A DNA stretch of 64,000 bases, from NCBI GenBank assembly GCA_021372615.1, contig JAJFUB010000093.1, forward strand, positions 7,912-71,911, given 5' to 3'. Each line of letters opens with the position of its first letter. Position 1 is the first letter of the stretch. The DNA comes from a bacterium (GTDB lineage Bacteria > Armatimonadota > Zipacnadia > Zipacnadales > UBA11051). A program made the translations under genes and the position numbers. Under the pieces are notes generated by a model. That model had not been told where the DNA came from. It did no database searches and was given only the letters and a program-made list of their open reading frames with translations. Positions 39,807 to 56,005 of the stretch are shown here, piece by piece.

Positions 39807-41122
39807 CGGGGCCCAGCGCTCCCGCGCCGGCGGCGGCGCTGTAGCCGGGGCGTACTCTCGGGCGCGAGCACCGTCTCCTGCCCGGCCAGCAGCCCGCTGA
39901 CGCCCTGGCGCAGCGCACTGTCGCAGGCGGCAGGCGCCCCGCTCTGCGGGTTGTAGCGGAACAGCACGCCCTCGTAGTTGCGCAGCACGACGGAGTCCTC
40001 GGAGGCGGAGACGAGGTAGTTGGGCATGATCGGCACCTTGCCGGCGCCGTGCAGCCCATCCACGGCATAGGTGGGCACCGCCACGCCGGAGACGTGCCCG
40101 CGTAGCCCCTCAATGATCTCCAGGCCCTTCCACAGCGAGGTGCGAAAGTGCCCCGCGCCGCGCACGGGGTCACAGTGGAACATGTAGTAGGGCCGCACCT
40201 TGATGCGCAGCAACCCGCGCACGAGGGCATGCATGGCCTCGACGGAATCATTGACGCCCTGCAGCAGGGTCGTCTGGTTGTTCACGGGAATACCCGCCTC
40301 GATCAGCAGGCGGCAGGCGAGGGCGGACTCGCGGGTGATCTCGCGCACGTGGTTGAAGTGGGTCTGCACCCAGACCTTGCGCTGGGCGGCGAGCATGTCC
40401 ACCAACTCGCCGTCGAGCAGGCGCTGGGGGAGGGTGACGGGTACGCGCGTGCCGACGCGGATGAGGTCCACGTGCTCGATCTCGGCCAGCGGGGCGATCA
40501 GGCGGCGCAGGCGGGCGGCCGACAGCATCAGCGGGTCGCCGCCGGAGACGATGATGTCATGCACCTCGGGATGGTCGCGCACGTACTGCACGACGGCGTC
40601 TACATCGGCCTGCAGGTGAGGCTCGGCGTCGCGGGCCATCGTGTTGCGCTTGCGGGTGCAGAAGCGGCAGTACATGGGACAGACCTGGCTGGCGAGCACC
40701 AGCACGCGGTCGGGATACCGATGCGTCAGCCCCCGCACCGGGGAGTCCTCTTCCTCCTCCAGCGGGTCCTCCATCTCGTCGGCCGCGGCTTCGTTCAGCT
40801 CCAGCGGCGAGGGTACGGCCTGCAGGCGGATGGGGTCGTCCGGGTCGTCGGGGTCAATCAGTGACAGGTAGTACGGGGGAATGGCCAGGCGGTAGGCGTC
40901 CGCCACGACGGCGAGGGCCTCGACGGTCGGCGGAGGCAGAGGCAACACGCGGGCCAGTTGCGCCACGGTGCGGACCGTGTGCTTGTGCTGCCAGCGCCAG
41001 TCAGTCCACTGCTCGGGGGCGACACCTTGCCAGGGGGCAGGGGGCCGAGTAGGCTCAAGGGAGTACTCTCCCCCTTCACCAGGATCGAGCTGCGGCAGGC
41101 GGATCGGATGTGAAGGGGTCAA
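39803..41122 (-). CDS. kamA: Lysine 2,3-aminomutase (KamA family radical SAM, PLP-dependent)
   Basis: WTDWRWQ, GLTHRYPDRVL, CPMYCRFCTRKR (CxxxCxxC), SGGDPL, RVGTRVPVTLPQR, THFNH, RPYYMFHCD and VPTYAVDGLHGAGKVP. Confidence 0.92.
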   Translation of the reverse strand: MTPSHPIRLPQLDPGEGGEYSLEPTRPPAPWQGVAPEQWTDWRWQHKHTVRTVAQLARVLPLPPPTVEALAVVADAYRLAIPPYYLSLIDPDDPDDPIRLQAVPSPLELNEAAADEMEDPLEEEEDSPVRGLTHRYPDRVLVLASQVCPMYCRFCTRKRNTMARDAEPHLQADVDAVVQYVRDHPEVHDIIVSGGDPLMLSAARLRRLIAPLAEIEHVDLIRVGTRVPVTLPQRLLDGELVDMLAAQRKVWVQTHFNHVREITRESALACRLLIEAGIPVNNQTTLLQGVNDSVEAMHALVRGLLRIKVRPYYMFHCDPVRGAGHFRTSLWKGLEIIEGLRGHVSGVAVPTYAVDGLHGAGKVPIMPNYLVSASEDSVVLRNYEGVLFRYNPQSGAPAACDSALRQGVSGLLAGQETVLAPESTPRLQRRRRRGSAGPR

Positions 41123-41173
41123 GTGAGGTCAACGACCTCCCGATGCCGAAATGTGGCCCTTGTTTGGTGCGCG

Positions 41174-41202
41174 ATTGTAGACCCGACCTGAGGGAGAGTC
41201 AA
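41174..41202 (-). promoter_or_regulatory. Sigma70-type promoter for kamA and the ATP-grasp/GNAT gene
   Basis: Minus strand TTGACT-N17-TACAAT, ending about 50 nt upstream of the kamA start. Confidence 0.7.
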
Positions 41203-41203
41203 G

Positions 41204-42220
41204 TTGCTTGATGGCCTTGGCGGGAAGATTGTGGTGCTGTATACCTCGGTGGCCGAGGCGCTGCTCGACGTACCCGAGGAATTGCGGGACTCGATGGACC
41301 TGGGCGTCCATGCGCAGGAGGTGGCGCGGGTGCTGTTGGCGGGAGAGCACGACGCCTGCGCGCTGTGCTGGGATGACGCCGTCTGGCCGACCCTCACGGC
41401 CCTGCAGGACCTGCAGCCGGAGGTCATCTTCAACCTGGCCGAGTGCCCCCAGCGCACCTGCCTGAAGGCCCCCCACGTCGCGGCAGTGCTGGAGTTGCTG
41501 CGGCTGCCGTACACCGGCAACGGGCCGCTGGCGCTGGCCCTCGCGACGGACAAAGCGCGGGCGAAGCGCCTGCTGCGCGCCCAGGGCATCGCGACCCCGG
41601 ACGGGGCGGTCTGTGCGGCCCCGCCCGAGCAGTGCACGATGCCCTTCCCCCTGATCGTCAAGCCGCTCTACGAGGACGGGTCGCTGGGCATCACGGAGGA
41701 CAGCGTCGTCGAGAACTTGCCGCAGTTGCGGGAGCGGGTCGCACGCGTCGTCGCAGAGCTGCAGCAGCCGGCGCTGGTGGAGGGGTTCCTGCCGGGCCGG
41801 GAGTTCCAGATCGCGGTGCTGGGCAACGGCACGCCCGACGACCCGCACCGCCTCCTCCCCCCGGCCGAGGTGCTCTATCAGCCCGGCTGGCGCCTCGTGT
41901 CCTACGCGGCCAAGTGGGAGCCGGACCATCCGGCGTACTCCGGCACGCCGACGACATGCCCGGCCGACATCGCCCCGAAGCTGGCGGAGCGCCTGGCGCA
42001 GTTGGGGCGGCGGTGCGCGGAGGCGTTCGGGCTGACGGGTTACGCGCGGATGGATGTGCGCCTGGACGCGCGCGGCGAGCCACATGTGCTCGAGGTGAAC
42101 CCGAACCCGGACCTGAGCGAGGATGCGGGCTTCGCCAACACGGCGCGCGCGGCGGGGCTGAGCTACGAGGCGTTGCTGTGGGAGATCGTGCGGCTGGGGC
42201 GGGCGTTGGGGGGAAGGTGA
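41204..42220 (+). CDS. D-Ala-D-Ala-ligase-like ATP-grasp enzyme
   Basis: IFNLAE, PYTGN, TDKARAK, IVKPLYEDGSLGI, LVEGFLPGREF, GYARMDVR and LEVNPNPDL. Confidence 0.88.
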   Translation: MLDGLGGKIVVLYTSVAEALLDVPEELRDSMDLGVHAQEVARVLLAGEHDACALCWDDAVWPTLTALQDLQPEVIFNLAECPQRTCLKAPHVAAVLELLRLPYTGNGPLALALATDKARAKRLLRAQGIATPDGAVCAAPPEQCTMPFPLIVKPLYEDGSLGITEDSVVENLPQLRERVARVVAELQQPALVEGFLPGREFQIAVLGNGTPDDPHRLLPPAEVLYQPGWRLVSYAAKWEPDHPAYSGTPTTCPADIAPKLAERLAQLGRRCAEAFGLTGYARMDVRLDARGEPHVLEVNPNPDLSEDAGFANTARAAGLSYEALLWEIVRLGRALGGR

Positions 42221-42234
42221 GAGGGGGACGGCTT

Positions 42235-42340
42235 ACGGCAACGGCGTCCTCACCCCGCAGACTGCTGCGCAGTCTGAGCCCTCTCCCGCGCGCGATAGGG
42301 CTGCGCGCCGGAGAGGGGAACGGCAGCGGCGACGGCGGTG
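42235..42340. repeat. Family B palindromic element between convergent ATP-grasp genes
   Basis: ACGGCAACGGCGTCCTCACCCC...CCCTCTCCCGCGCGC...GCGCGCCGGAGAGGGGAACGGCAGC, sharing its ends with 3330-3410. Confidence 0.75.
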
Positions 42341-42344
42341 CGGG

Positions 42345-43304
42345 CTAGGTGTCCGCCAGAATCCGCTCCACGGCTTGCCCCATCGTCAGGCCCGCCCGCT
42401 TCACTGCCGCTGCGAAGCCCGCATCCGGGGCGAGGCACGGGTTGGTGTTGACCTCCAGCACCCACGGCTCACCGGCCTCATCCACCCGGAAGTCCACCCG
42501 TGCATAGCCCCGCAGACCGAAGCACTCCCAACACCGCCGGGCCAGCTCGCGCAGGCGCGCAAGCAGGGGCGCAAGCAGGGGCGCATCGCGCCGCGGGAAG
42601 CGGAAGCGACGGGTGGCGCGCTCGGCGTCCCCCCACTTCTCGGCATAGTCCACCACGTGCGGCTCGTCGGCGGCGTAGCCACCGAAGACCATCTCCGCCG
42701 GGGGGAGGACTGCTGGACCAGCGGCGCCGGCCAGCAGGGACAGGCTGAACTCGCGCCCGGCGATGAAGGCCTCGGCGAAGCACTCCCGGCCCAGACGACG
42801 CTCGGCGGCGCGCACGGCCCTCGCCAACTCCCCGGCACCTCGGACTTCGACCACCGACTCGCGCGTCAGGCCGATGGAGGCGTGCTCCCAGACGGACTTG
42901 ATGATGAAGACGCCCCGCGCCGGAGCGCCGGCACCGGCCCAGGGCGGTGTCGGGAGGCCCTCCGCAACCATCTGCCGCTTGGCCAGGAGCTTGTGGGAGG
43001 TCAGGAAGATGGCCTCAGCGGGGGAGCCGGTGTAGGGCAGTCCCAGCGCGTCCAGCCACGAGGGGAGCAGGTGGATCAGGCGGCCCTGGCCCGCCGGGGC
43101 CTCGACGAGGTTGAACGCGAGGTCCGGTCGCAGGTCGGCGAGGGTCTGCTGCAGGGCGGGCAGGTCCAGCGTCACCGGCACGGCAACTGGGGCATGCCCC
43201 AACCGCTTGAGCACCGTGGCGACATGCCGGGCCTGCACGAGCGCATCCGCAACATCGGCCGGCGCGCCTGGGGGGACCTCATCATGGAGAATGGCAATTC
43301 GCAT
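42345..43304 (-). CDS. D-Ala-D-Ala-ligase-like ATP-grasp enzyme
   Basis: AFNLVE, PYTGS, SHKLLAK, IIKSVWEHASIGL, EAFIAGREF, GYARVDFR and LEVNTNPCL. Confidence 0.88.
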   Translation of the reverse strand: MRIAILHDEVPPGAPADVADALVQARHVATVLKRLGHAPVAVPVTLDLPALQQTLADLRPDLAFNLVEAPAGQGRLIHLLPSWLDALGLPYTGSPAEAIFLTSHKLLAKRQMVAEGLPTPPWAGAGAPARGVFIIKSVWEHASIGLTRESVVEVRGAGELARAVRAAERRLGRECFAEAFIAGREFSLSLLAGAAGPAVLPPAEMVFGGYAADEPHVVDYAEKWGDAERATRRFRFPRRDAPLLAPLLARLRELARRCWECFGLRGYARVDFRVDEAGEPWVLEVNTNPCLAPDAGFAAAVKRAGLTMGQAVERILADT

Positions 43305-43363: not shown

Positions 43364-45433
43364 CTAGTTCAGGAAGAAGTGGTGTCCTGTCTGGCCGCAC
43401 AGGAAGTCAATCCCCAGCCACAGGCCCGCAGCCGAGAACTCCCCGACGACCAGCCCCAGGAAGAACGGCTTGGCCTCGCGGAAGCGCTTGAAGCCCCCGT
43501 AGCGCAGGATGACGGACTTCAGCGCCCAGCCGACCAGGACCGAGAACCAGAGCTGGATCATCGGCCAACTGGGTCCCATGGCATAGCCCAGCGGGTGGAA
43601 CGGCCACCACGTATAGAGGGCGCGCATGATCGCCAGGAAGACTGTCATCGCGGCGCCCCCGAGCATCAGGACCCAGTTCGCCGCGCTCGTCGGGTACGGC
43701 TGGTTGAGGTAGCCTGTGACGAAGCTGAGCGTCTGCTGGGGAGAGATGGTCAGGAACCAGCTCGTGAAGCGGATGGCGCCGAGATGATAGGCCATGAGCA
43801 GGAAGGCGACGTACGAGCTGACGACGCTCGCGATGATCGCCAGCCCCAGCCATGGCAGCAAGCGGCGGGGGTTGAGGCCCGAGGCGTCGGCCAGCTTGTG
43901 GGCATCCATCAGGCTGGGCATCAGGAAGCCGCGCAGGTCGAACATGAAGACCTTCTGGATGAAGCTCAGCACCGTGAGGCTGCGAGCGCCGAGGGCGCGC
44001 GTGCCGGCGCAGGCGACGATGACATCGGTGGGGCGGAAGGCCTGCACGAACAGCAACCCACCCTCGGACACCAGCCGCGTGAGCACCAGGGCGAACATGA
44101 AGAACAGCACGATCACCAGCCCGATCAGTCCGGACGCCACGCCCGTGGCCAGGCACCACAGGGCCAACAGCACCAGGCCGACGGCGCCCCCGAAGATCGC
44201 GGTGCGGAAGGGCAGCGGCTCGCGGGCGTCGTCGGCCGCCACCCGGCCCAGGGCCTGCGCCCAGACCTGCCCCAGGTGGCGGCGGCTGGTCCAGGTCATC
44301 GTCCCGGCGAGCATGACGAAAGCGCCGATCATCTGCAGGGCGCTGTGCGGCGGGGTCGGGTAGCCCGGCAGCGGCTTGAGCTGCAGGCCGGCGCCGGCGA
44401 ACAGCGCCCCCTGCGCGATGAAGAACAGGAAGAAGAACCAGAAGCTGAAGGACAGCTCGGTGGAGATCAAGTAGGTGAAGCCGATGACACTGAAGTGGAT
44501 GAACATGGTGAAGATGCCCATGTTGCTCCACACGCGCCCCGGGAAGTACTGCCGCAGCGGGATGACCAGCTTGATCTCCGGCACGGCGGGGAAGTAGAAG
44601 TGCAGGCCGTTGATGGAGTGGATGAGCAGGGGAATAGCGCAGCCGATCCACATCCAGCGATGGCGGAAGAACGGCGGGAGGGGCGAGGCCGGGGACTGGT
44701 CGGCGGCCAGCGCCAGGGGCACCTGGACCAGCGGGAAGACCAGGCGCTCGTGGTCGAGCCAGCGCCGCCGCAGGATGACGCTCAGGCAGACCATGCAGAA
44801 GAAGATGACCAGCGCCGCCAGCGTCCACGCCGCGATCGGCACCGACCACGCCCCCCACGGCACGCCGTGGCCCGGCCGCAACCCCTCGTAGAAGTCCACG
44901 ACGACGGACCGCCCACCCGGCTGCAGACCCGCCGGCAGCAGCGTGTACAGGTCGGAGGTGACGACCGACCCGCCGCCGGGCGTCATCTGCATCGCGCCCT
45001 TGAGGTCGAAGGGGAACAGCCACTGGGGCAGGTACTGGAACAGCCGCTCGACCCACCCGTTCTCGGGCGTGGCGAAGTAGTAGGCCCCGGCCAACGTCGG
45101 GAACAGGTACTCGGTCAGGCCGAACGAGGGGATGCCCGCCGCCACCAGCATCATGGCGTAGACCGTGTACAACTCGCGCGGGGTGAAGCCCCGCCCGGCC
45201 AGCCACATCTGCAGCGGCGTGTTGACGGCCAGGAGCAGGATGAAGAGCACGAAGACGCCGATGGGGAGATGGCAGCAGGCGATCCACGTGCCCCGGAGCA
45301 CCAGGTCGCAGTAGGGCGTGATGACCCCCAGGACGACACTGCACAGCACGCCCAGGATGACAGCCCGGGGCGTGATGTCGCGGCCTGTGGTGAGTGGGGC
45401 GGGCCCGGCCGGCATGAGCGGGTCCTCGGACAT
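43364..45433 (-). CDS. Large polytopic membrane protein, DUF6785/DUF6784-like (putative transporter)
   Basis: More than 15 hydrophobic segments, RRRWLDHERLVFPLVQVP, WWPFHPLGYA, WFSVLVGWALKSVILRYGG and KPFFLGLVVGE. Start at 45433 or 45415. Confidence 0.7.
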   Translation of the reverse strand: MSEDPLMPAGPAPLTTGRDITPRAVILGVLCSVVLGVITPYCDLVLRGTWIACCHLPIGVFVLFILLLAVNTPLQMWLAGRGFTPRELYTVYAMMLVAAGIPSFGLTEYLFPTLAGAYYFATPENGWVERLFQYLPQWLFPFDLKGAMQMTPGGGSVVTSDLYTLLPAGLQPGGRSVVVDFYEGLRPGHGVPWGAWSVPIAAWTLAALVIFFCMVCLSVILRRRWLDHERLVFPLVQVPLALAADQSPASPLPPFFRHRWMWIGCAIPLLIHSINGLHFYFPAVPEIKLVIPLRQYFPGRVWSNMGIFTMFIHFSVIGFTYLISTELSFSFWFFFLFFIAQGALFAGAGLQLKPLPGYPTPPHSALQMIGAFVMLAGTMTWTSRRHLGQVWAQALGRVAADDAREPLPFRTAIFGGAVGLVLLALWCLATGVASGLIGLVIVLFFMFALVLTRLVSEGGLLFVQAFRPTDVIVACAGTRALGARSLTVLSFIQKVFMFDLRGFLMPSLMDAHKLADASGLNPRRLLPWLGLAIIASVVSSYVAFLLMAYHLGAIRFTSWFLTISPQQTLSFVTGYLNQPYPTSAANWVLMLGGAAMTVFLAIMRALYTWWPFHPLGYAMGPSWPMIQLWFSVLVGWALKSVILRYGGFKRFREAKPFFLGLVVGEFSAAGLWLGIDFLCGQTGHHFFLN

Positions 45434-45557
45434 CAGCGCTGGGCGGGCAGTTCGCACCTCAGGACGCCGACACCTGCCGCGCCCGACCGCCGGCGCCGCA
45501 AGCAGGCGCGCGGCGGGTGGCCGGAGAAGTATGTGCTGGCAATCCCCGGAGTGTGAC

Positions 45558-47384
45558 ATGAGGTACGGTTGGCGCTGTCTGTCTGTCGGCTGCGTACTCG
45601 TGGTGCTGCTGCTCGCCGGGCTGTCAACGCCACCGGGGGCGCTCGGCAACTATCACTCCCCGACGGCCCTGGCCCTGTCGCCGGACGGCCAGACGCTGTA
45701 TGTGGCCGACCAGACGCAGGATGCGGTCGCGACGGTGGCGGTGGCGACGGGGAAGGTCACCGGCACGATCCCGGTCACCGACCCGCGCGCGCTGGCCCTG
45801 TCGCCCGACGGCAGAACCCTCTATGTCGCCAGCGGCGACCGGGACGAGGTCGTCAAGATAGATGTGACCTCGCGGCGGATTGTCGCGCGGGCCGAGGCGC
45901 ACCGGCAACCTGCCGGCCTGACGCTGTCCGCCGACGGCCGGACCCTCTACTGCGGCAACCAGTTCAGTGACGATGTGCTCGTCTACGAGGCCGCGAGCCT
46001 GAAGCGCACGGCGCGCCTGCCGGCCGTGCGCGAGCCGCGCTTCTGCGCCCTGACCCCGGACGGCAAGACGCTGGCCGTGGCGAATCACTTGCCGCTGGGG
46101 TCGAACCTGGATGACGGGCTGGGCGCGGTGTTGTCGCTGGTGGACCTCACCGGCGGCAGCGGTACGACACAGGTGCTGCTGGCCCACGGCGCCACCGATG
46201 TGGGCCAGGTCGTGTGCTCGGCGGACGGGCGCTATGCCTTCGTCGTCCACGTGCTGGCGCGGTGGCTGGTGCCGCCGACGCAACTGGAGCGCGGCTGGAT
46301 CGCCACCAACGCCCTGACCATCGTGGACCTGACCCAGCGGCAGCGCGTGAACACGGTGCTGCTTGACGACCTCGACCGCGGGGCGGCCAACCCCTGGGCC
46401 CTGGCGCTCAGCCCCGACGGCAAGACGCTCTACTCCACCCACGCCGGCACCGACGAAGTCCAGGTCATGGACACGGCCAAGCTACTGAAGCTCGTGACCG
46501 AGCGGCCGGCGAACAGCCCCACGGCGCTGGAGGATGACCTGACGGCCGTGTACCGGGCGGGGGTGCGGCAGCGCGTGGCATGCGGGGGCATCGGCCCGCG
46601 GGCGGTCGTCGCCACGAACGACGGGGCGTTCGTCGCCAACTACTTTTCAGGGACCGTGACGCGGCTGTCGGCGCAAGGCCGGGTGACGCAGACCGTGGCG
46701 CTGGGGACCCAGCCGCCGGAGGACGAGATCCGACAGGGAGAGAGGCTCTTCAACTCCGCGCAGGTCTGCTTCCAGAACTGGCAGTCGTGCGCGACTTGCC
46801 ACCCGGATGGCCGCACCGACGGCCTGGCCTGGGACCTGATGAACGACGGCCTGGGCAACCCCAAGAACGCCAAGTCGCTGCTGCTGTCGGGGCGCACGCC
46901 GCCGGTGATGGCCCACGGCGTGCGGGACAACATGGAGGTGGCGGTGGCCTCGGGCTACAAGTACATCCTCTTCCATGTCCCGACCGCCGAGGAACTGGCG
47001 GCGACCTCGGCCTACATCGAGACGCTGCCTTCGGCCCGCAGCCCCTACCGCACGCGCGACGGGAAGCTGTCGGCGGCCGCCCTCCGGGGCAAGGCGATCT
47101 TCGAGCGCCAGGACGTCGCCTGCGCCACCTGCCACCCCGCGCCGCTGTTCACCGACCTGAAGGCCTACGATGTGGGCACGAAGGGGCCGTTCGACAGCCG
47201 CGCCGACTTCGATACGCCGACGTTGGTGGAGATGTTCCGCAGCGCCCCGTATCTGCACGACGGCAGTGCCGTGACGCTGCGCGAGGTGCTCGTCGAGCAC
47301 AACAAGGGCGACAAGCATGGCGTGACCTCGAAGCTGAAGGAAAGGGAGCTACAGGACCTCATTGAGTACCTCCTGTCGCTATAG
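45558..47384 (+). CDS. Exported YVTN-type beta-propeller fused to a di-heme cytochrome c peroxidase/MauG-like domain
   Basis: Signal peptide, repeated P.ALALSPDG.TLYV blades, CATCH at 46788-46802 and 47121-47135, KNAKSL and DTPTL...APYLHDGS. Confidence 0.85.
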   Translation: MRYGWRCLSVGCVLVVLLLAGLSTPPGALGNYHSPTALALSPDGQTLYVADQTQDAVATVAVATGKVTGTIPVTDPRALALSPDGRTLYVASGDRDEVVKIDVTSRRIVARAEAHRQPAGLTLSADGRTLYCGNQFSDDVLVYEAASLKRTARLPAVREPRFCALTPDGKTLAVANHLPLGSNLDDGLGAVLSLVDLTGGSGTTQVLLAHGATDVGQVVCSADGRYAFVVHVLARWLVPPTQLERGWIATNALTIVDLTQRQRVNTVLLDDLDRGAANPWALALSPDGKTLYSTHAGTDEVQVMDTAKLLKLVTERPANSPTALEDDLTAVYRAGVRQRVACGGIGPRAVVATNDGAFVANYFSGTVTRLSAQGRVTQTVALGTQPPEDEIRQGERLFNSAQVCFQNWQSCATCHPDGRTDGLAWDLMNDGLGNPKNAKSLLLSGRTPPVMAHGVRDNMEVAVASGYKYILFHVPTAEELAATSAYIETLPSARSPYRTRDGKLSAAALRGKAIFERQDVACATCHPAPLFTDLKAYDVGTKGPFDSRADFDTPTLVEMFRSAPYLHDGSAVTLREVLVEHNKGDKHGVTSKLKERELQDLIEYLLSL

Positions 47385-47387
47385 GGA

Positions 47388-47465
47388 CTGTAGGGCGGGG
47401 GCTCGTACCCCGCCCAGCCGTTCCGTTCGTGCCATGCGGGGCGGGGTACAAGCCCCCGCCCTACA
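47388..47465. repeat. GTAG-type REP doublet overlapping the start of the next gene
   Basis: CTGTAGGGCGGGGGCTCGTACCCCGCC ... GGCGGGGTACAAGCCCCCGCCCTACAG are inverted arms. Confidence 0.8.
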
Positions 47466-50400
47466 GGACGGCACGGCCAGCGGGGCTGGCCGTGGCACCC
47501 GGATCCTGGCTCTGGCTGTGCCCCTGCTACTCGCTGTTCTGGCGGCGTCCGCCCAGCCCCTCGACGAAGCCCACCTGTACGTCAAGCAGGCGACATGGCA
47601 GGATACGCTGGCTGCCTCGTGGCGGAACCTGATCCAGCTCGAACGGGCCGAAGCCGACGCCGCGGCGGCGACCGGACCGCTGGTGCTCGGGCCGTGGCAT
47701 GTGATCGGCTCCTTCAGCAACGCCGACGGCAAGGGCTTCGCCGCCGCCTATCCCCCCGAGACCGGGATCGCGCTGGATAAGACGTACCCCGGCATGGCCA
47801 ACTCCGAGGCGAAGTGGCGGCGGATGGACAGCTTCGTGGACGGCCAGGTCCACACGCTCAACCCGCACTTCCGGCTGACCGAATGGGCCATCGCGTACCT
47901 GTACCGCAAGATCACCGCGCGCGAGGCGATGGAGATCACCGGCTACTTCGGCAGCGATGACGGGCTCGTCGTGTGGCTCAATGGGGAGAAGCTCATCTCT
48001 GAGGACGTGCCGCGCGGCCCGGCGCCGGACCAGAGCAAGGCGACGCTGAAGCTCAAGGCCGGCGACAACCACCTACTGCTCAAGATCGTCAACCGGACCG
48101 GCGGCTGGGGCTTCTACTTCTCGACCAAGCCCGGCGGGGGCAACCCGGCCGACAACCCGACGCATCGCCAGCGCGTCGGCGCCCTGTGGGACAAGCTGCG
48201 CGCCGACTTCCCCGGCCCTGAGGACCGCCTGGCGATGCAGACCGAGAGCGCCGACGGCGTCTGGCCCCTGGATTGGGACGGGACGGAGGCAGCGCTGGCG
48301 CGGCGGTTGCATGGCGCGCTGGGGGCGCACCTGGCCCGGTCGCGGGAGGTGCTGACCGGCCTGGGCGCCGATCTGGGTGAGACGGCCGTAGCCGACCCGG
48401 CGAAGCTGCTGGCGGCGCTGGAAGGACAGGCGGGCGACCTCGCCCCCACGCTCGAACAGGCCGGGGCGGCGGCGAGGCTGCGCGGGCCGATGCACCTGGC
48501 GGCGCGGCTGCAGGCGGTGCTGGAGACGCGAGCCCGGCTCGTCAGCACCGGCCTGGCCATCGCCGATCTGGCCGCGTCCTATGGCGACCAGTGCCGGGGC
48601 GCCGACGGGTTCCGCGACAGCCTCATTGAGCTGACGAAGCGCGGGGAGGCGCTGGTACGGCGGGCCGAGGCGAGCCGTGCCCTGCCCGCGGCCGACTTGC
48701 AGGACTGGCAGGCGGCCGTCGCGCGCCTGCAGCATTCCGCCCTGGTGAAGGCCAACCCGCTGCTGCAGTTCGGCAAGCTCATGGTCCTGATCCGCAAGCC
48801 CGGGGGCGGCAACCCCGGCCTGCCGCAGAACTGGCAGAGCAACTCCAGCATGCGGCGCACCGGCTGGGACACGACGATCGCCACGGTGGACTCGACCGAC
48901 CCGGCCGCCGCGCCGCAGGCGATCTTCCACTCCGACAAGTACTTCGTGGGCGACCTGTGCCTGTCGTTCGACGGCAAGCGGGTGCTGTTCTCGATGCCCG
49001 ACGCGCAGAAGGCCGACCGCTACCAGGTGTGGGAGATCGGCGTGGGCGGCCAGGGCCTGCGTGATGTCACCGCCACCGCCGACAACGACTACGACAACTA
49101 TGATGCGTGCTATCTGCCCAACGGGCAGATCATGTTCACCTCCAGTCGCTGTTTGCAGGCCGTCCCGTGCACCGGCGGGGACCATGTGGCGCTGATGTAC
49201 CTGATGGACGCCGACGGCAGCCAGGTGCGGCAGTTGACGTTCGACCAGGACCATAGCTGGTGCCCGCGGGTGCTCAACGACGGGCGCGTCGTCTACACCC
49301 GCTGGGAGTACAACGACATCCCGCACTACTTCAGCCGCCTGCTGTTTTCGATGAACCCCGACGGCACCCGCCAGATGGCCTTCTACGGGACGAACTCGTT
49401 CTTCCCCAACACGATGATGTACGCGCGGCCACTGCCGGGCAGCAACAGCCGCGTCGTGTGCATCCTGTCGGGCCATCACGGCAACCCGCGCATGGGCCAG
49501 GTCGCGCTCCTGGACACCGCCGAGGGCGAACAGGAGGCCGGGGGCGTCGTGCGCCTGCTGCCGGGCCGCCATCGGAAGATCGCCAACCCGATCATTGACC
49601 AGTACGCGACCGGCGAGTGGCCGCAGTTCGTCCACCCGTTCCCGCTGTCGGACAAGTTCTTCCTCGTGTCGTGCAAGAGCGAACCGGACGGCTGGTGGGG
49701 GCTGTACTTGCTGGATGTGTTCGACAACCTCGTACCCCTGCGCGTCGAGCCCGGGGCGGCGGTGTTCGAGCCGATCCCGCTGCGTCCCACCGTTACGCCG
49801 CCGGTCATCCCCCCGGCAGTGGACCTGGCCCGCTCGGACGCGCTGGTCTACATGTACGACGTGTACCGGGGGGCGGGGCTGGCGGGGGTGCCGCGCGGGA
49901 CGGTGAAGGCGTTGCGCGTGGTTGAGCCCGTCTACCGCTACTGGGGCAACGGCGAGACGCACAGCACGGCCATTGACGGGGGCTGGGACGTCAAGCGCAT
50001 CCTGGGGACGGTGCCGGTGGAGGCGGACGGGTCGGCGCTGTTCCGCGTGCCGGCCAACACGCCGCTGATCGTGCAGCCGCTCAACGCCGAGGGCATGGCG
50101 CAGCAGCAGATGCGCAGTTGGTTCACGGCCATGCCGGGCGAGACGCTGTCGTGCGTGGGCTGCCACGAGCGTCGGGCGCAGGGCCCCGGGGCGGGGCTGC
50201 GGGCACGGGCCCAGTTGCTCAAGCCCGCCGACATCACGCCCTGGTACGGCCCGGCGCGGGGCTTCAGCTTCGCCCGGGAAGTGCAGCCCGTGCTGGACCG
50301 CAACTGTCTGCGCTGCCACGCCTCGGCGCCGGTGGACTTCCGCCCCGACCCGCAGCCGGGCGGCCGCTTCAGCATTGCCTACAACACGCTGCACCCGTAC

Positions 50401-50682
50401 GTGCGACGGCCGGGCCTGGAGGCAGACATCCACATGCTGCCTCCGCGCGAGTTCGAGGCCAACACGAGCCAGCTCGTGCAGATGCTCAAGAAGGGGCACC
50501 ACCGGGTGAGGCTCAGCGCTGAGGACTGGGACCGGCTCATCACGTGGATTGACCTGAACGTGCCCTATGCCGGCGACTGGCGCGAGGCCGTGCCGCCCGC
50601 GCCCGAGAACCTGATCCGCCGCCGCGAGGAGATCCGCGGCCAGGACGCGGCCGTCCGGGCGCAACAGGCGGGGCGCCAATGA
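47434..50682 (+). CDS. Hydrazine synthase alpha-subunit-like (HzsA-like) heme c protein with an N-terminal PA14-like sugar-binding domain
   Basis: PA14-like segment (FGSDDGLVVWLNG..LKAGDNHLLLK), WD40/TolB-like propeller (DACYLPNGQIMFTSSR; VLNDGRVVYTRWEY), HZS-alpha middle-like segment (VPRGTVKALRV...LGTVPVEADGSALFRVP...QPLNAEGM..QQMRSW) and the hemes CVGCH and CLRCH. The start is uncertain. Confidence 0.8.
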   Translation: MRGGVQAPALQDGTASGAGRGTRILALAVPLLLAVLAASAQPLDEAHLYVKQATWQDTLAASWRNLIQLERAEADAAAATGPLVLGPWHVIGSFSNADGKGFAAAYPPETGIALDKTYPGMANSEAKWRRMDSFVDGQVHTLNPHFRLTEWAIAYLYRKITAREAMEITGYFGSDDGLVVWLNGEKLISEDVPRGPAPDQSKATLKLKAGDNHLLLKIVNRTGGWGFYFSTKPGGGNPADNPTHRQRVGALWDKLRADFPGPEDRLAMQTESADGVWPLDWDGTEAALARRLHGALGAHLARSREVLTGLGADLGETAVADPAKLLAALEGQAGDLAPTLEQAGAAARLRGPMHLAARLQAVLETRARLVSTGLAIADLAASYGDQCRGADGFRDSLIELTKRGEALVRRAEASRALPAADLQDWQAAVARLQHSALVKANPLLQFGKLMVLIRKPGGGNPGLPQNWQSNSSMRRTGWDTTIATVDSTDPAAAPQAIFHSDKYFVGDLCLSFDGKRVLFSMPDAQKADRYQVWEIGVGGQGLRDVTATADNDYDNYDACYLPNGQIMFTSSRCLQAVPCTGGDHVALMYLMDADGSQVRQLTFDQDHSWCPRVLNDGRVVYTRWEYNDIPHYFSRLLFSMNPDGTRQMAFYGTNSFFPNTMMYARPLPGSNSRVVCILSGHHGNPRMGQVALLDTAEGEQEAGGVVRLLPGRHRKIANPIIDQYATGEWPQFVHPFPLSDKFFLVSCKSEPDGWWGLYLLDVFDNLVPLRVEPGAAVFEPIPLRPTVTPPVIPPAVDLARSDALVYMYDVYRGAGLAGVPRGTVKALRVVEPVYRYWGNGETHSTAIDGGWDVKRILGTVPVEADGSALFRVPANTPLIVQPLNAEGMAQQQMRSWFTAMPGETLSCVGCHERRAQGPGAGLRARAQLLKPADITPWYGPARGFSFAREVQPVLDRNCLRCHASAPVDFRPDPQPGGRFSIAYNTLHPYVRRPGLEADIHMLPPREFEANTSQLVQMLKKGHHRVRLSAEDWDRLITWIDLNVPYAGDWREAVPPAPENLIRRREEIRGQDAAVRAQQAGRQ

Positions 50683-51620
50683 GGAGGCCCCTGCCCCTCG
50701 CGATGGCGCTGCTCGCGTTGAGCGCCCTCCCTCTGGGGGCCGCGCCCACGGTCCACACCGGCTGGCCGTTTGACAGCGCCGAGGCGAAGCGACGGCAGGC
50801 GGAGACGGCGCGGGCCCTGGGCTGCGCCACCGAGCGCACGCTGGACCTGCCTGGCGGAGGGCAGCTCACGCTGGTGCTCATCCCGGCCGGCGAGTTCACG
50901 ATGGGCGCCCCGCCAGGCGAGCCGCATCCCGACCCCGATGAGGTCCCCGCCTTCAAGGTCATCGTTTCGCGCCCGCTGTGGGTGAGCCAGTGCGAGATCA
51001 CGAACGGGCAGTTCCGCCTGTTCCGTCCCGACCACGACAGCCGCGCCATTGACACCCACTGGAAGGACCGCGTGGGGCCGGGGCCGTCGCTCAACGGCGA
51101 CCAGCAGCCGGCGGTGCGCCTCTCGTGGTTCGCCGCACGCGACTTCTGCCTGTGGCTCGGGAAGACCACGGGCCTGAACTGCCGCCTGCCGGATGAGACC
51201 GAGTGGGAGTATGCCTGCCGCGCCGGCACGGACACGCCCTGGGTGTGCGCGCCGGGCGAGTTGGCGCGCGTGGCCAACTTCGCTGACGCCAGCCTGCGCA
51301 GCCTGAAGCCGTGGGCGCTGCGTGACGACACCCAGAACGATCGTGCCGCGGCCTCGGCGGACGTGGGGCGGTACGAGCCGAATGCCTGGGGGCTGCGGGA
51401 CATGCACGGGAACGTGGCGGAGTGGTGTGGCAGCGACTACGGGCCGTACCCGCTGGCGGAGAAGCGCTCGGCGAGTGAGAGCGCCCCGAAGGCCGTGCGC
51501 GGGGGCTCGTGGGACGACCGGCTGCGGCGCGTGCGGTCAGCGTTCCGGCAGAGCTACGCGCCGGACTATGCGGTGTACAACGTGGGGTTCCGGGTGGTGT
51601 GTGACGTGGAGGGGAAGTAG
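50679..51620 (+). CDS. Exported FGE-sulfatase/SUMF1-fold protein
   Basis: LVLIPAGEFTMG, EITNGQF, PAVRLSW..A..FC.WL, RLPDETEWEYACRAG, PNAWGLRDMHGNVAEW, RGGSW and NVGFRVV. ATGA coupling to the HzsA-like gene. Confidence 0.9.
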   Translation: MRRPLPLAMALLALSALPLGAAPTVHTGWPFDSAEAKRRQAETARALGCATERTLDLPGGGQLTLVLIPAGEFTMGAPPGEPHPDPDEVPAFKVIVSRPLWVSQCEITNGQFRLFRPDHDSRAIDTHWKDRVGPGPSLNGDQQPAVRLSWFAARDFCLWLGKTTGLNCRLPDETEWEYACRAGTDTPWVCAPGELARVANFADASLRSLKPWALRDDTQNDRAAASADVGRYEPNAWGLRDMHGNVAEWCGSDYGPYPLAEKRSASESAPKAVRGGSWDDRLRRVRSAFRQSYAPDYAVYNVGFRVVCDVEGK

Positions 51621-51636
51621 AGGACGCCGTTCGCCT

Positions 51637-54600
51637 CTACTCCCCCGTCGCCGCCAGGACCCGTTTCTTCATCTCGACGTAGCCAGCCTCGTTCGTGCTC
51701 CCCCAGGTCTGCTTGCATTGCCCCCAACCGCCCGCGCCGGTTGCCAGCGGGGCTTGCAGGACCCGGCTCTCCAGCGGCGCCGCCACGTTCACCAACGCCG
51801 CCAGCGGCTGATCGCTCATCCCCGCATGACAGGAGTTGCACGACTGCGCCACGTAGGCGCGGAGTGCCTTGACACCCGCCTCCGACGGGGCACGGCGCTC
51901 GTGGCGCTGGAAGCTGTAGTCGCCGTAGTACTGGCCGTTCAGGTCCATCCACTCGGCGATCCGCGTGAAGCTGTCGCGGTCGAGCTTCGCCTTGCCGCGA
52001 TGCTCGTCGAGCAGGAAGCGGGCCAGCTTCCCCGCCTGGGCGCCGTAGTCACCCGGCTGGCTGATGTCGGTCTGCACATTGCGGTAGGCCAGCTTGAGCC
52101 ACCCCGGTCCCGCCACGAGGGCATCGTACGCTTCGTTGAACTGCGCCGTGGGCGTCCCCAGCAGGCTGAGGCCGGCGGCGCGGTGCTTGAGGCCGTGGCA
52201 GCGGAGACACGAGCGATCCAGGACGGGCTGCACCGTGCGGGCGAAGCTGAAGCCGCCCGGGTACTGGGGGCCCGGTGGCGGTGTCAGGGCCTGGGCGGTG
52301 GCCGCGTGTTCATAGCGCCTGGCCACCGGTGACGACCCGCGCGGCTCATGGCAGCCGGCGCAACTCATCGTCTCGCCAGGCTGCAGGTACACCTGGCTGC
52401 GCATGCTGAACAGCGAGACGTTGTTCTCGTCGAGGAGCTGGAACAGCAGCGGGCGCCGGGCCGGGGCGCGGAAGGCCGCCGAGCCATCGGCCGCCACCGG
52501 CACCGTCCCCACGACCGACTTGACGATCTCCTGGCTGACGGCGCTGCGCTCGGCGGCGCTGGCCGTCGGTTGCTCGTGCATCGCCACCACCCGCAGGGTC
52601 TTCACACTCCCCGGCTCCAGCGGCACGAAGCTGTTGTAGACGTTCTGGACGAGGAACACCCCATCGGTCTGGCCGGGCGTCAGGGCCGAGGGGATGGTGG
52701 GCGGCAGCGGGCGTGGCTGGACGGGCAGCGGCGCGAAGCAACACGTCGCCGGATCGCGGTAGAGCAGCTCCCGCCCGCCGAGGGTGTCCACGAGATGGAC
52801 GCCGTAGCCGTCAGGCCGGGCGACCTTGCCCTGCGTGATGAGCGGGTTGGGGTCATATGCCGCCAGGAACAGATCGGACGACAGCGGGCAGGGGTCGGTG
52901 TACGAGCCCATGGACCAGCCCTCGGTCTCCGGGAAGCTGCACTCGGGCGTGATCCGTGTGACCGGGTCCATCCCCTCTTCCCCGGCGCGGCGGTTCACCG
53001 TGAAGATCGAGCCGGCGCTGTAGGAGTGGTGCGCCGTGGCCAGCGCGACCAGCAGGTCGGTGCCGGGGATCGCCTTCGCCTGGGCGGCCATGCACGGGTT
53101 GCGTGTGGAGTTGGCGTAGTAGTGCGCCGTCGCGGTGCCGTCCGGGCGCGTGGTCCAGAGGCTCTGGAAGAGCACGTCGTGCCGGTTGATGTAGTCCCAG
53201 CGCGTGTAGATGATCTGCCCGTCGGGCAGCACGCCGGGGTTCCACTCGTTCGCTTCGCCATACGACAGGCGCGTGATCTTGCTGCCATCAGCCTCGCAGC
53301 GGTACAGCACATACGAGGGCGTGTAGCGCCCGCCGTGGCAGCGGCCGAAGCCCTGGTTGCGGGTCGAGACGAAGGCGATCCCGCCATCGGGCAGGTAGCA
53401 CGGGTCGAAGTCCTCGATCAGCACCGTCTGGCGGCCGTCCCAGCCCTCGAGCGGGTCCACGCCGGCCTTCCCGGTGATCTGCCGCACCTGCCGGGTCTGC
53501 AGGTCGAGTTCATACAGGAAGAAGCGGCGCTGCTCGCGGGGCTCGACCGTGTTGTCGCAGTAGTTGAAGACGACCCGCCGGGCGTCGAAGGACAGGTCGG
53601 GATGGCCGACGGTGCCGCGCGGCAGGCGGTCCCGGAGCAGGACCTCCACCTGCGGCTGCGTCTTCCAGTGGCTCAGCATGACGAGGCCGTCGCCGGGTTG
53701 GCTGTGTCGGCCCTCGTACTGGTCCACCATGTGGCTGTACAGCGGCGGGCCGCGCTTGACCAGCAGCATGCGGTCGAAGTCCAGCCGCGGGTGGCTGAGG
53801 ATGATCTCCCGGCGCAGGCGGCGGGTGCGCAGGTACAGGTCCTGCCAGTCTGCCGTGGCGGGCGCGGCCTCGCTGGCCTGCTGCAGGTCCGCCAGCTCGC
53901 GCGCGGCGTCGGGCAGCGGGCGAACGGACTGCACGAAGGCCAGCGTCTGGCGCGCCAACTGCAGGGCGTCCGCCGTCGCGGCGCGGAAGCGGGCGCGGTC
54001 GGCGGCCTCATTGGCCGTGCGCGGGCCCTTGTATGGCGTGTAGGTGGACCAGGGGCTGGAGGAGCTTTCGGTGCAGGGGCGGTCGAGGGCCAGGTTCGTC
54101 TCCGGGTCCGCGGCGCCGTAGAGCTCGACCTCATCGAGGTGCAGGAACTCGCGGCCCGGCTGCTGCAGGCGCACGTAGCGCGCCCGCTGCCCCGTCAGCG
54201 CCACCCGCAGCGGCTTGCCGTCGGTGCCGCCGTGGAAGACCGTGCCATCGTTCTGCCAGACCTGCCGCCAGCTTTGCCCGTCGTCGGAGAGCAGCATCAG
54301 GATGTGCGCGGCGCGGGCAGCGCAATCCTCGCGGTTGTACAGCAGCGCGTGATCGAGCGCGACCACCTGCCCTAGGTCCACCTGCCACCAGGGCTTGTCC
54401 TCCAGTTGCGTATGGAAGCCCGTCCCGCCCTGTTTGACGCCGTCGCAGGCGCCGGGGGCATCGTCCTCGGGCGCGATGGCCGTGCCCGGCGGCAGCCTCT
54501 GGGCTTTGGCCTGCCGCAGCCAGTCCAACTCCAGCAGCAGGTCGTTGATCTGGTCGGGGAAGTCGGCGGCGATGCGGGTGAGCAGCTGGTCGGCGCCGGT

Positions 54601-55185
54601 GTCCAGGCCGAACGCGAAGCCGCACGGTCCGCCGCCCTGGCAGACCTTCAGGAGCAGATCGTTCTTCCCGGCGCGAAGGTTCAACGTCAGGCGCTCATCG
54701 CCCAACACGCAGGCGCGGCCGACGTTGTGGGCCAGGAGCCGCTCGCCGTTGAGCCACACCGTCAGCGTGTCATCGCTGCCCAGCGCGACCGGCAGCGCGC
54801 GGGCCTCCGGGACCGTGATGGTGCGATACAGGTAGGCGGCCATGTTCTCGTTGTCGGGGAAGACGGCCAGGGAGTTGCTCTCGCCATCGCGGAACGCGCC
54901 GCGCTGCCAGCGGACCTCATGCCCGCCCTTGCCGGGGTACGCGGCGTGCAGGTCCACTTTCTCTTCCGGGGGATACTTCGTGTCGAAGCCCGCGCCGTTG
55001 GTGGAGTCGAAGGGGCCGATGACGTACCAGGGGCCGAGGGTCGCCACCGCCGAGGCCGCCGCCTGCGAGGCGACGTAGGTCTCGCGCGCGGTGGCGCGCT
55101 TGACATAGGCGCCCTGCGCGTGCAGCGGCGCCCACGCCAGCCAGGCCAGGCACAAGGCCATCGTCATGCGCAGCACGGGACGCAT
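51637..55185 (-). CDS. Second HzsA-like heme c protein with PA14-like and F5/8 (discoidin) domains
   Basis: Signal peptide, LGSDDTLTVWLNG, FHTQLEDKPWWQVDLG, DPCYLPDGGIAFVSTR, GQIIYTRWDY, VGTVPVAADGSAAFRAP, and the hemes CAGCH, CLRCH and CNSCH. Start placed at ATG 55185. Confidence 0.82.
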   Translation of the reverse strand: MRPVLRMTMALCLAWLAWAPLHAQGAYVKRATARETYVASQAAASAVATLGPWYVIGPFDSTNGAGFDTKYPPEEKVDLHAAYPGKGGHEVRWQRGAFRDGESNSLAVFPDNENMAAYLYRTITVPEARALPVALGSDDTLTVWLNGERLLAHNVGRACVLGDERLTLNLRAGKNDLLLKVCQGGGPCGFAFGLDTGADQLLTRIAADFPDQINDLLLELDWLRQAKAQRLPPGTAIAPEDDAPGACDGVKQGGTGFHTQLEDKPWWQVDLGQVVALDHALLYNREDCAARAAHILMLLSDDGQSWRQVWQNDGTVFHGGTDGKPLRVALTGQRARYVRLQQPGREFLHLDEVELYGAADPETNLALDRPCTESSSSPWSTYTPYKGPRTANEAADRARFRAATADALQLARQTLAFVQSVRPLPDAARELADLQQASEAAPATADWQDLYLRTRRLRREIILSHPRLDFDRMLLVKRGPPLYSHMVDQYEGRHSQPGDGLVMLSHWKTQPQVEVLLRDRLPRGTVGHPDLSFDARRVVFNYCDNTVEPREQRRFFLYELDLQTRQVRQITGKAGVDPLEGWDGRQTVLIEDFDPCYLPDGGIAFVSTRNQGFGRCHGGRYTPSYVLYRCEADGSKITRLSYGEANEWNPGVLPDGQIIYTRWDYINRHDVLFQSLWTTRPDGTATAHYYANSTRNPCMAAQAKAIPGTDLLVALATAHHSYSAGSIFTVNRRAGEEGMDPVTRITPECSFPETEGWSMGSYTDPCPLSSDLFLAAYDPNPLITQGKVARPDGYGVHLVDTLGGRELLYRDPATCCFAPLPVQPRPLPPTIPSALTPGQTDGVFLVQNVYNSFVPLEPGSVKTLRVVAMHEQPTASAAERSAVSQEIVKSVVGTVPVAADGSAAFRAPARRPLLFQLLDENNVSLFSMRSQVYLQPGETMSCAGCHEPRGSSPVARRYEHAATAQALTPPPGPQYPGGFSFARTVQPVLDRSCLRCHGLKHRAAGLSLLGTPTAQFNEAYDALVAGPGWLKLAYRNVQTDISQPGDYGAQAGKLARFLLDEHRGKAKLDRDSFTRIAEWMDLNGQYYGDYSFQRHERRAPSEAGVKALRAYVAQSCNSCHAGMSDQPLAALVNVAAPLESRVLQAPLATGAGGWGQCKQTWGSTNEAGYVEMKKRVLAATGE

Positions 55186-55240
55186 AGTGACCAGTTCGAC
55201 GGGCGGGGAGGGCTTTCCTGTTGGCGCCGCCGACCGGGCC

Positions 55241-56005
55241 CTACCGCAACTGCGCCAGGGCCGCCCGCGCCCCGCTGAGCATGTGGCCGGCTTCGTCGCC
55301 CACGCCGACGAAGCGGAAGCCCTCGTCGAGACGCTGGCGGCCGATCTGGGGCGTCGGGGCGTAGATGCCGGGGGCGACCCCATGGGCCTCGGCGCGCTCG
55401 CGGATGTGGGCGACAGTCTCGATGAAGCGCGGGTCGCCATGGGACTCGAAGGGGCTCAAGCCCATCGAGGCGCTCAGGTCGTTGGGGCCGATGAAGGCGA
55501 CATCCACGCCCGGCACACTGAGGATGTCGTCGAGGGCGTCCACGGCCTCCACCTGCTCGATCTGCACGATGACCAGGGTCTCGTCGTTGGCGTGCTCGAA
55601 GTATGTCCGGGCGTCTGTCTCGAAGCCGATCACGGCGAGGGTGGGGCCATAGCCGCGGAGGCCCTGCGGCGGGTACTTGGCCCACGCGACGGCCTGTTCC
55701 ACGTCGGCGCGGCTACTCTGCATGGGGAAGATGACGCCGAAGGCGCCGCTGTCGAGCGCGTGCTTCACGTTCTCGTTGGTGTTCCACGGCACGCGCACGA
55801 TGGGCGTCGAGCCGGCGTGGGCGATCAGCTGGCACATGATCGCGGCCGTCTGGTAGTCGGTGCTGCTGTGCTCCAGGTCAATGGTGAGCCAGTCGAAGCC
55901 CACGGTGGTCATCTGCAGCGCGGCGACCGGGTCGGGCAGCGTGAGCCACGAGCCGACGGTGGCGCGGCCCTCGCGCAGGGCTTGTTTGACGGTGTTGGTG
56001 CGCAT
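55241..56005 (-). CDS. HpcH/HpaI class II aldolase family protein
   Basis: GFDWLTIDLEHS, IVRVPWN, PPQGLRG, VQIE and FIGPNDLS. Confidence 0.92.
   Translation of the reverse strand: MRTNTVKQALREGRATVGSWLTLPDPVAALQMTTVGFDWLTIDLEHSSTDYQTAAIMCQLIAHAGSTPIVRVPWNTNENVKHALDSGAFGVIFPMQSSRADVEQAVAWAKYPPQGLRGYGPTLAVIGFETDARTYFEHANDETLVIVQIEQVEAVDALDDILSVPGVDVAFIGPNDLSASMGLSPFESHGDPRFIETVAHIRERAEAHGVAPGIYAPTPQIGRQRLDEGFRFVGVGDEAGHMLSGARAALAQLR

Follow-up and report, generated by a model that had tools for sequence, protein, structure and literature searches.

A hydrazine synthase-like, exported haem protein pair in a heterotrophic-looking Armatimonadota genome and its possible link to carbohydrate chemistry

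To our knowledge, the hydrazine synthase (HZS) of anammox bacteria was long regarded as an enzyme without relatives. It has alpha, beta and gamma subunits, and in Scalindua the beta and gamma subunits are fused into a single protein. Homologs from other bacteria have come to light more recently. Dalcin Martins et al. (2023) reported hzsA-like genes beside fused hzsBC-like genes in Phycisphaerae and proposed a broader family acting on other substrates (PMC10732223), and Hagglund et al. (2025) distinguished four clades of homologs in which alpha and beta-gamma genes are co-localised and key residues are not conserved (PMC12758564). In clades I-III of the latter study, the position of gammaHis144 carries Trp, the Glu of the beta loop is lost and an FG-GAP/CRTAC1 gene is found in the cluster (PMC12758564). 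The GTDB hit tables of that paper include Armatimonadota and "SUMF1/EgtB/PvdO" proteins, and its main text makes no mention of PA14, FGE or sulfatase modules, of fusion or fission, or of a DhaKL/LsrF-type neighbourhood (PMC12758564). The subject of this report is a pair of this kind, encoded by three co-directional genes at positions 45558-51620 of a 64,000-nucleotide stretch of DNA, hereafter the window, that lies on contig C147 (about 70% G+C) of a 6.4 Mb, 96.7% complete genome. The nearest named relatives of the window proteins are found in metagenome-assembled genomes of Armatimonadia/Armatimonadota. As non-anammox HZS-like pairs were already published in 2023 and 2025, the window is not the first of its kind.

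Judged by sequence and by predicted structure, the three proteins are real homologs of HZS beta-gamma and HZS alpha, while the residues that they carry indicate that the locus does not encode hydrazine synthase and would make no hydrazine. The reading preferred here, to which we assign a probability of roughly 45%, is that of an exported haem system built on the HZS scaffold, in which the beta-gamma-type protein would pair with one alpha-type protein for lectin-anchored redox chemistry on a carbohydrate-derived substrate.

The first gene (45558..47384, + strand) encodes an exported, fused HZS beta-gamma-like protein, here called BG, which was identified by Pfam, NCBIfam, PDB matches and family alignment. 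Behind a signal-like peptide at the N-terminus (MRYGWRCLSVGCVLVVLLLAGLSTPPGALG) it consists of a seven-bladed YVTN/lactonase-type propeller and a di-haem domain of the CCP/MauG fold, the architecture that the first-pass annotation, made from the letters alone, had given it. Both halves were matched in Pfam, the first by the Lactonase/SGL/YVTN propeller models and the second by CCP_MauG, at 37 bits against a cut-off of 25.6 and over model positions 3-75 of 149 only. CxxCH occurs twice, at position 491 and at position 602 of the long open reading frame (ORF), the spacing being that usual for di-haem CCP/MauG proteins. NCBIfam returned E-values of 3.3e-64 for hydrazine_BC, 4.5e-44 for the beta and 3.6e-34 for the gamma model, and the best PDB sequence matches were HZS beta (5c2v_B, 2.2e-42) and HZS gamma (5c2v_C, 2.6e-31). 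BG shares with bacterial di-haem CCP and MauG/MbnH the CCP_MauG fold signature and the two CxxCH of its C-terminal half, and differs from them in being fused to a propeller and in having a family-specific Cys and no conserved inter-haem Trp; no CCP or MauG in the PDB is as close to it as HZS gamma.

The extra Cys ahead of the first haem motif (VCFQNWQSCATCH; pattern CFQxWQSCxxCH), which had been remarked on at first sight, is real: it sits seven residues before the first haem Cys, is kept in 20 of 22 BG-family members and is absent from HZS gamma. The position of gammaHis144 is occupied by Trp in CCP and MauG; in the BG family this position, within TPPxMxxGVRD, is variable, with Ala-His in BG itself and no conserved Trp at the CCP/MauG inter-haem site. 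An acid equivalent to gammaGlu122 is retained in BG, as Asp. Finally, the loop 245-260 of HZS beta, which approaches the inter-subunit tunnel (PMC12607021), has a counterpart in blade 6 of BG (NWLPVCEAENGQVFTN aligned with RWLVPPTQLERGWIATN). This TQLERGW loop is nearly invariant in the BG family, and 18 of 22 members retain its Glu, whose precise numbering depends on an inferred offset.

The second gene (47434..50682, + strand) encodes the exported HzsA-like protein A1, for which the evidence is a Pfam HZS_alpha match, an AlphaFold2 model, Foldseek and the haem motifs. A signal peptide is followed by a PA14-like beta-sandwich (about residues 80-235), a helical linker of about 200 residues, a propeller and then the haem domains, with haem 1 (CVGCH) in the HZS_alpha middle domain and haem 2 (CLRCH) in a C-terminal cytochrome-type domain. 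Pfam HZS_alpha (PF18582) matches A1 at 2.4e-30 and 105.4 bits, far above the cut-off of 26.6, and the haem motif then follows. The model, built on 66 homologs across which both haem motifs are invariant, has a predicted local distance difference test score (pLDDT) of 87.5 and a predicted template modelling (pTM) score of 0.83. In Foldseek its top match was HzsA (5c2v_A, E 1.8e-23, template modelling (TM) score 0.61 on the target, 804 aligned columns), and the second was a bare TolB propeller at 4.6e-10, which leaves HzsA as the only strong fold match in the PDB. The first-pass annotation had proposed an HzsA-like protein with a propeller, an HZS-alpha middle-like domain and two CxxCH, and had pointed to the middle-domain profile and to a structural match with HzsA as the ways to check it; both came out in its favour. 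Invariant stretches of the propeller in the A family include SGHHG, RWEY.D..HYF.R and DQDH.W.P, with invariant Trp, Tyr, Cys and His residues such as C579, W609, W624, Y626 and H681-H682. The PA14-like module of A1, in which GSDDG is invariant, reached pLDDT 90 when folded alone, and its best PDB fold matches were the PA14 domains of GH31 and GH3 enzymes, MpAFP, Cea1A and Flo1 (E 3e-5 to 1e-3, TM 0.3-0.45), which gives its PA14 label support at the level of fold.

The third gene (50679..51620, + strand) encodes a 313-amino-acid protein of the formylglycine-generating enzyme (FGE) fold, resembling PvdO and PorK and recognised by Pfam (FGE-sulfatase, 3e-46), a PDB match, an ATGA overlap and fusion counts. 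It has its own signal-like peptide, and its start overlaps the stop codon of A1 in the ATGA, so that the two genes are translationally coupled, as had been noticed from the letters. It is no extra passenger of the operon. Of 77 related loci, 71 encode a single protein that combines A with the FGE fold at its C-terminal end, and only six, all of them nearest relatives within Armatimonadota, have FGE as a separate gene. Because of this fusion count, the ATGA overlap and the new signal peptide, which sits immediately ahead of the conserved GWPFD that opens the domain, the FGE-fold protein is understood as the detached C-terminal domain of an A-type protein, split off in a manner peculiar to Armatimonadota. 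Its best match in the PDB is PvdO (5hha, 8.6e-22), and PvdO and PorK/GldK are the best across the PDB and NCBIfam; these are likewise periplasmic and without the Cys pair. In contrast to them, the domain here normally forms the C-terminus of a di-haem protein of the HzsA type and has no pyoverdine or type IX secretion system context. The copper-binding Cys pair of the Streptomyces FGE lies in LCHDSYC. Alignment to 2q17/6muj placed a gap at the first of these Cys and Leu at the second, and with the copper site absent the protein is taken to be a binding or structural module and not a formylglycine-generating enzyme; sulfatase maturation was rejected on the same ground.

How far the locus departs from hydrazine synthase can be followed residue by residue. 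Compared with HzsA/B/C of Kuenenia stuttgartiensis (PDB 5C2V), all three subunit types are present with four CxxCH in total, A1 matches the fold of HzsA over its full length (propeller, middle and C-terminal haem domains), the beta loop with its Glu is kept in BG, and the order in the window is beta-gamma and then alpha; the homology to the HZS scaffold that was first noted is well founded. Differing from the anammox enzyme are the additional PA14-like, helical and FGE-fold parts, the several alpha paralogs, and the lack of a Tyr591-type ligand, of gammaCys165 and gammaAsp168, and of any HDH/HAO candidate. In haem alphaI of HZS, Tyr591 is the proximal ligand and His587 is diverted to zinc. Where HZS has CSGCH-YGSY, A1 has CVGCH-ERRA, which puts Ala at the position of Tyr591 behind a plain CxxCH motif, and this position is not conserved in the consensus of the A family. 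In haem gammaI of HZS, gammaCys165 provides a third haem thioether and gammaAsp168 is the distal acid (PMC12758564, PMC12607021); both fall within a seven-residue segment (CGRDPGF) that is deleted in BG. The NCBIfam scores are far below the equivalog cut-offs as well, with 217 bits against 1250 for BC, 151 against 560 for beta, 118 against 625 for gamma and 44.6 against 800 for alpha. It is because of these scores, the absence of Tyr591, gammaCys165 and gammaAsp168, and the lack of an HAO/HDH candidate that the locus was set apart from hydrazine synthase, and the idea of a cryptic anammox organism was rejected for the same reasons.

The absence of an HAO/HDH candidate follows from a search of the whole genome. 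Not one ORF with more than three CxxCH was found in the 96.7% complete assembly, and there is therefore no candidate for an octahaem protein of the HAO/HDH type; the first-pass annotation had noted the absence of hao from the window, and this observation extends to the genome. ORFs with at least two CxxCH number five only, and they are BG, A1, two further A paralogs (A2 and A3) and one ORF of 1887 amino acids. This fifth ORF is located at C109:2198-7858 on the - strand. The genome also contains a gene of the CcsA type for cytochrome c assembly, making the attachment of haem feasible.

These observations also weigh on the possibility that the two proteins act on a nitrogen compound such as NO, hydroxylamine or a relative of these, in detoxification or in N-N/N-O chemistry, as a simpler relative of HZS. 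The only characterised members of both families are the HZS alpha, beta and gamma subunits, the beta loop and the gammaGlu122-equivalent Asp are kept, and an open CCP-type haem site could bind NO. A catalase-like Tyr/Zn site is nevertheless unlikely with Ala in place of alphaTyr591, gammaCys165 and gammaAsp168 are lost in the BG deletion, the genome offers no multihaem partner of the HAO/HDH type, and the lectin-type modules and the glycan and sugar-catabolic neighbourhoods described below carry no nitrogen-cycle signal. Chemistry of this type is accordingly considered a poor prospect for the locus.

The pair can also be compared with the published homologs outside anammox. As in the pairs of both earlier studies, alpha-like and fused beta-gamma-like genes are co-localised (PMC12758564, PMC10732223), and as in those of the later study the gamma part has two CxxCH, key HZS catalytic residues are not kept and the structural similarity is (PMC12758564). 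The differences from clades I-III are the variable gammaHis144 position, the conserved beta-loop Glu and the lack of an FG-GAP gene in the window; shared with clade IV are the variable gene order and the lack of an FG-GAP or ABC-transporter gene (PMC12758564). The window pair thus fits the loosely defined clade IV, by its features rather than by placement in a tree. What is new locally is the fission of the FGE fold, the retained beta-loop Glu, the family-specific Cys, and a genome that encodes hardly any multi-haem proteins apart from these.

The host genome has a single copy of BG against three copies with HZS_alpha. A2 lies convergent to the operon (51637..55185, - strand), its stop codon 16 bp from that of the operon, and was identified by Pfam, motifs and 29-38% identity to A1. 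It is composed of PA14-like, F5/8 type C discoidin, propeller and HZS_alpha modules with two CxxCH, and ends in a cytochrome c-like tail with a third motif, CNSCH; the Pfam matches are HZS_alpha (1e-20, 74.5 bits against 26.6), F5_F8_type_C (1e-11) and Cytochrome_CBB3 (2.2e-4). A3, found by a search of the same genome, lies at C42:47-3151 on the - strand. It has no N-terminal PA14-like module and carries a lectin-like beta-sandwich inserted after haem motif 2 and ahead of the C-terminal helices. The gene next to A3 encodes a giant protein of Gly-rich repeats that exceeds 1900 amino acids.

The family to which A1 belongs proved to be large. Among 1.84 billion representative proteins, the superfamily comprised 11,054 clusters (at 50% identity) with a threshold of E <= 1e-3, and 1,540 with the stricter one of E <= 1e-30; close relatives of A1 occur in at least 587 species genomes. 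Going by record title, the carriers belong to Armatimonadota, Planctomycetota, Hydrogenedentota, Nitrospirales, Verrucomicrobiota, Lentisphaerae, Kiritimatiellia and others. In the control set, Bacteroides thetaiotaomicron matched PF18582 as well, and Anaerohalosphaera lusitana and Thermogutta terrifontis are named in PMC12758564. When 151 genomes sampled evenly from Armatimonadota were examined, 19 had A and 18 had a strong BG, with 17 genomes having both (Fisher p = 2.5e-19, not corrected for phylogeny). The two genes are adjacent in 11 of these 17 genomes, in either order. In the comparison across phyla, 44 loci had enough flanking sequence, and in 16 of them BG is no more than 10 kb from A, as a rule immediately downstream of a fused A-FGE gene. 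The adjacency recurs in at least seven taxonomic groups, again by record title; conserved adjacency in other genomes, the lack of which the first-pass annotation had named as a ground for refutation, was found within and beyond the phylum. Another Armatimonadota genome of the same genus (G149) and one of the same family (G067) are without both A and BG, a patchy distribution that suggests gain, loss or transfer of the module.

Gene order is a different matter. The first-pass annotation had seen the order of the anammox genes in the window along with their domain content. The content stands, and the order is present here, yet it is not a trait of the family: with both orders occurring within the phylum and fused A-FGE followed by BG prevailing elsewhere, the anammox-like order is a local rearrangement, and its proposed significance was rejected. 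This lack of a fixed order is one of the points for a reading in which BG is an ordinary periplasmic enzyme of the peroxidase type, the A proteins are unrelated lectin-anchored cytochromes and their adjacency is incidental. The genes are also apart in about two thirds of the cross-phylum loci and in some genomes of the phylum, and weaker BG matches, YVTN-CCP fusions, exist in 11 Armatimonadota genomes that have no A. Set against this, 17 of the 18 genomes with a strong BG have A and 17 of the 19 with A have BG, the adjacency returns in group after group, and both partners are homologous to subunits of one known complex. It would be surprising, on these counts, if the two proteins had nothing to do with each other.

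The ratio of the two genes allows another interpretation. Up to 10 A paralogs are found per genome against one to three BG genes, the proportion to be expected of a maturase and its substrates. BG might then, like MauG or MbnH, use H2O2 or O2 to form a cofactor or cross-link in A, and the A proteins alone would be dehydrogenases resembling quinohaemoproteins. Beyond the CCP_MauG match, the haem domain of BG matches the NCBIfam models of MauG, MbnH and the His-Xaa-Ser-associated MauG-like proteins (1.3e-12 to 1.5e-7), the A propeller is rich in the invariant Trp, Tyr, Cys and His residues listed above, and the adjacency of A and BG is frequent without being obligatory. However, the inter-haem Trp that relays electrons in MauG and CCP has no conserved counterpart in BG, BG is by a wide margin most closely related to HZS beta and gamma, whose roles are those of structural and catalytic subunits and not of maturases, and the conserved beta-type tunnel loop fits a stable complex. 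A maturase is for these reasons judged improbable.

Under the preferred reading, the single BG of the genome would serve three A paralogs that carry different lectin-type modules. We infer that BG associates with a single A subunit at any one time, in the way that beta-gamma does with alpha in HZS, and that the surface (second) haems of BG and A would exchange electrons with a soluble carrier; A2 even has an extra cytochrome c-type motif. In the alpha-type subunit, haem 1 would be a canonical His-ligated c haem in the HZS_alpha middle domain and haem 2 a second c haem. The lectin-type modules and the FGE fold would position the enzyme on a glycan, a glycoconjugate or another carbohydrate-derived substrate, where redox chemistry, most likely oxidative, would take place at the open haem site or sites.

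That the substrate may be derived from carbohydrate is suggested by several lines of evidence, and the sugar-oriented context sensed at the outset gained support from all of them. The lectin-type modules differ among the paralogs, being PA14-like in A1, PA14-like with discoidin in A2 and a lectin-like insert in A3, and another A paralog, in the related locus L005, carries Laminin_G_3. The neighbours in the window include PcRGLX-like, GH123-like and F5/8 type C proteins, GT87 and a DegT-type aminotransferase, with no nitrogen-cycle gene and no FG-GAP gene among them, and the genome as a whole is that of a heterotrophic-looking member of Armatimonadota. A further pointer, which for the window itself is indirect, is a cluster that recurs around the A-FGE ortholog in several phyla, at about 25 of the 80 related loci (L003, L005, L030, L031, L055, L056, L060, L068, L071 and L074 among them) and that would serve the catabolism of sugar fragments. 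Its order is DhaK, DhaL, an LsrF-type thiolase (NF006081, 2.7e-133), a protein of about 220 amino acids exported by the twin-arginine (TAT) route, A-FGE, BG, a chorismatase/RidA-like protein and an NHL-type propeller; the TAT-exported protein has no match in Pfam or NCBIfam. In the host genome, the only close homolog of the chorismatase/RidA-like member has 42% identity and lies in the stretch C120:98232-106561, away from the HZS-like genes. The neighbours of that homolog are DUF1549/DUF1553- and DUF1501-looking genes, as judged by eye, and a PQQ-like propeller, and they are unrelated.

A number of observations pull away from the preferred reading. By sequence, the PA14 label of A1 is weak, with Pfam PA14 (PF07691) at E 0.015 and 15.6 bits, below the cut-off of 24, and a Pfam search of the PA14 region of A1, the N-terminus of A2, the helical linker and the insert of A3 gave nothing beyond this one sub-threshold match. 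The lectin-type modules could be directed to the cell's own envelope and not to a substrate. A and BG are apart in six of the 17 Armatimonadota genomes that have both, and in the closest sampled relative with both (G013, of the same order, with 72% identity in A) they are 31 kb from each other on one contig. Close orthologs of the DhaKL/LsrF-type genes were not found in the host genome, which has only distant, unclustered homologs, and the sugar-cluster context is therefore borrowed from other phyla. Nor was a tested function for any member of the family found in the literature.

The remaining surroundings of the operon add little to its interpretation. Upstream of BG and divergent from it is the gene of a DUF6785/DUF6784 protein (43364..45500, - strand; Pfam DUF6785 3.2e-149, DUF6784 5.6e-32). 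Its long ORF (43364-45649) overlaps the start of BG and its true start must therefore be internal; the gene was not recurrent in the neighbourhood analysis of related loci. Further upstream, 38244-43304 holds a lysine 2,3-aminomutase gene and three ATP-grasp genes of the D-Ala-D-Ala-ligase type, one of them fused to a GNAT domain, and these are unrelated to the haem proteins. A scan of 45200-55700 for promoter and terminator consensus sequences found nothing.

The non-anammox homologs of hydrazine synthase number thousands of clusters, and learning their role would explain the origin of anammox chemistry; such work might also bring to light a periplasmic haem enzyme of a new type in bacteria that degrade polysaccharides. 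The window by itself does not reveal the function, for which carbohydrate-directed redox chemistry is the best guess. It does provide a compact case, as one beta-gamma gene and three alpha paralogs make up nearly all of the multi-haem proteins of the genome, and it offers a natural split of the FGE fold together with residue-level contrasts with HZS that can guide experiments. A bolder and still doubtful proposal is that A-FGE and BG may together represent widespread, unrecognised two-subunit haem enzymes that are exported, dock on glycans, oxidise carbohydrates and feed a pathway of the DhaKL/LsrF type. If such a carbohydrate-oxidising class were real, hydrazine synthase would be a late and specialised offshoot of a family of enzymes of carbon metabolism.

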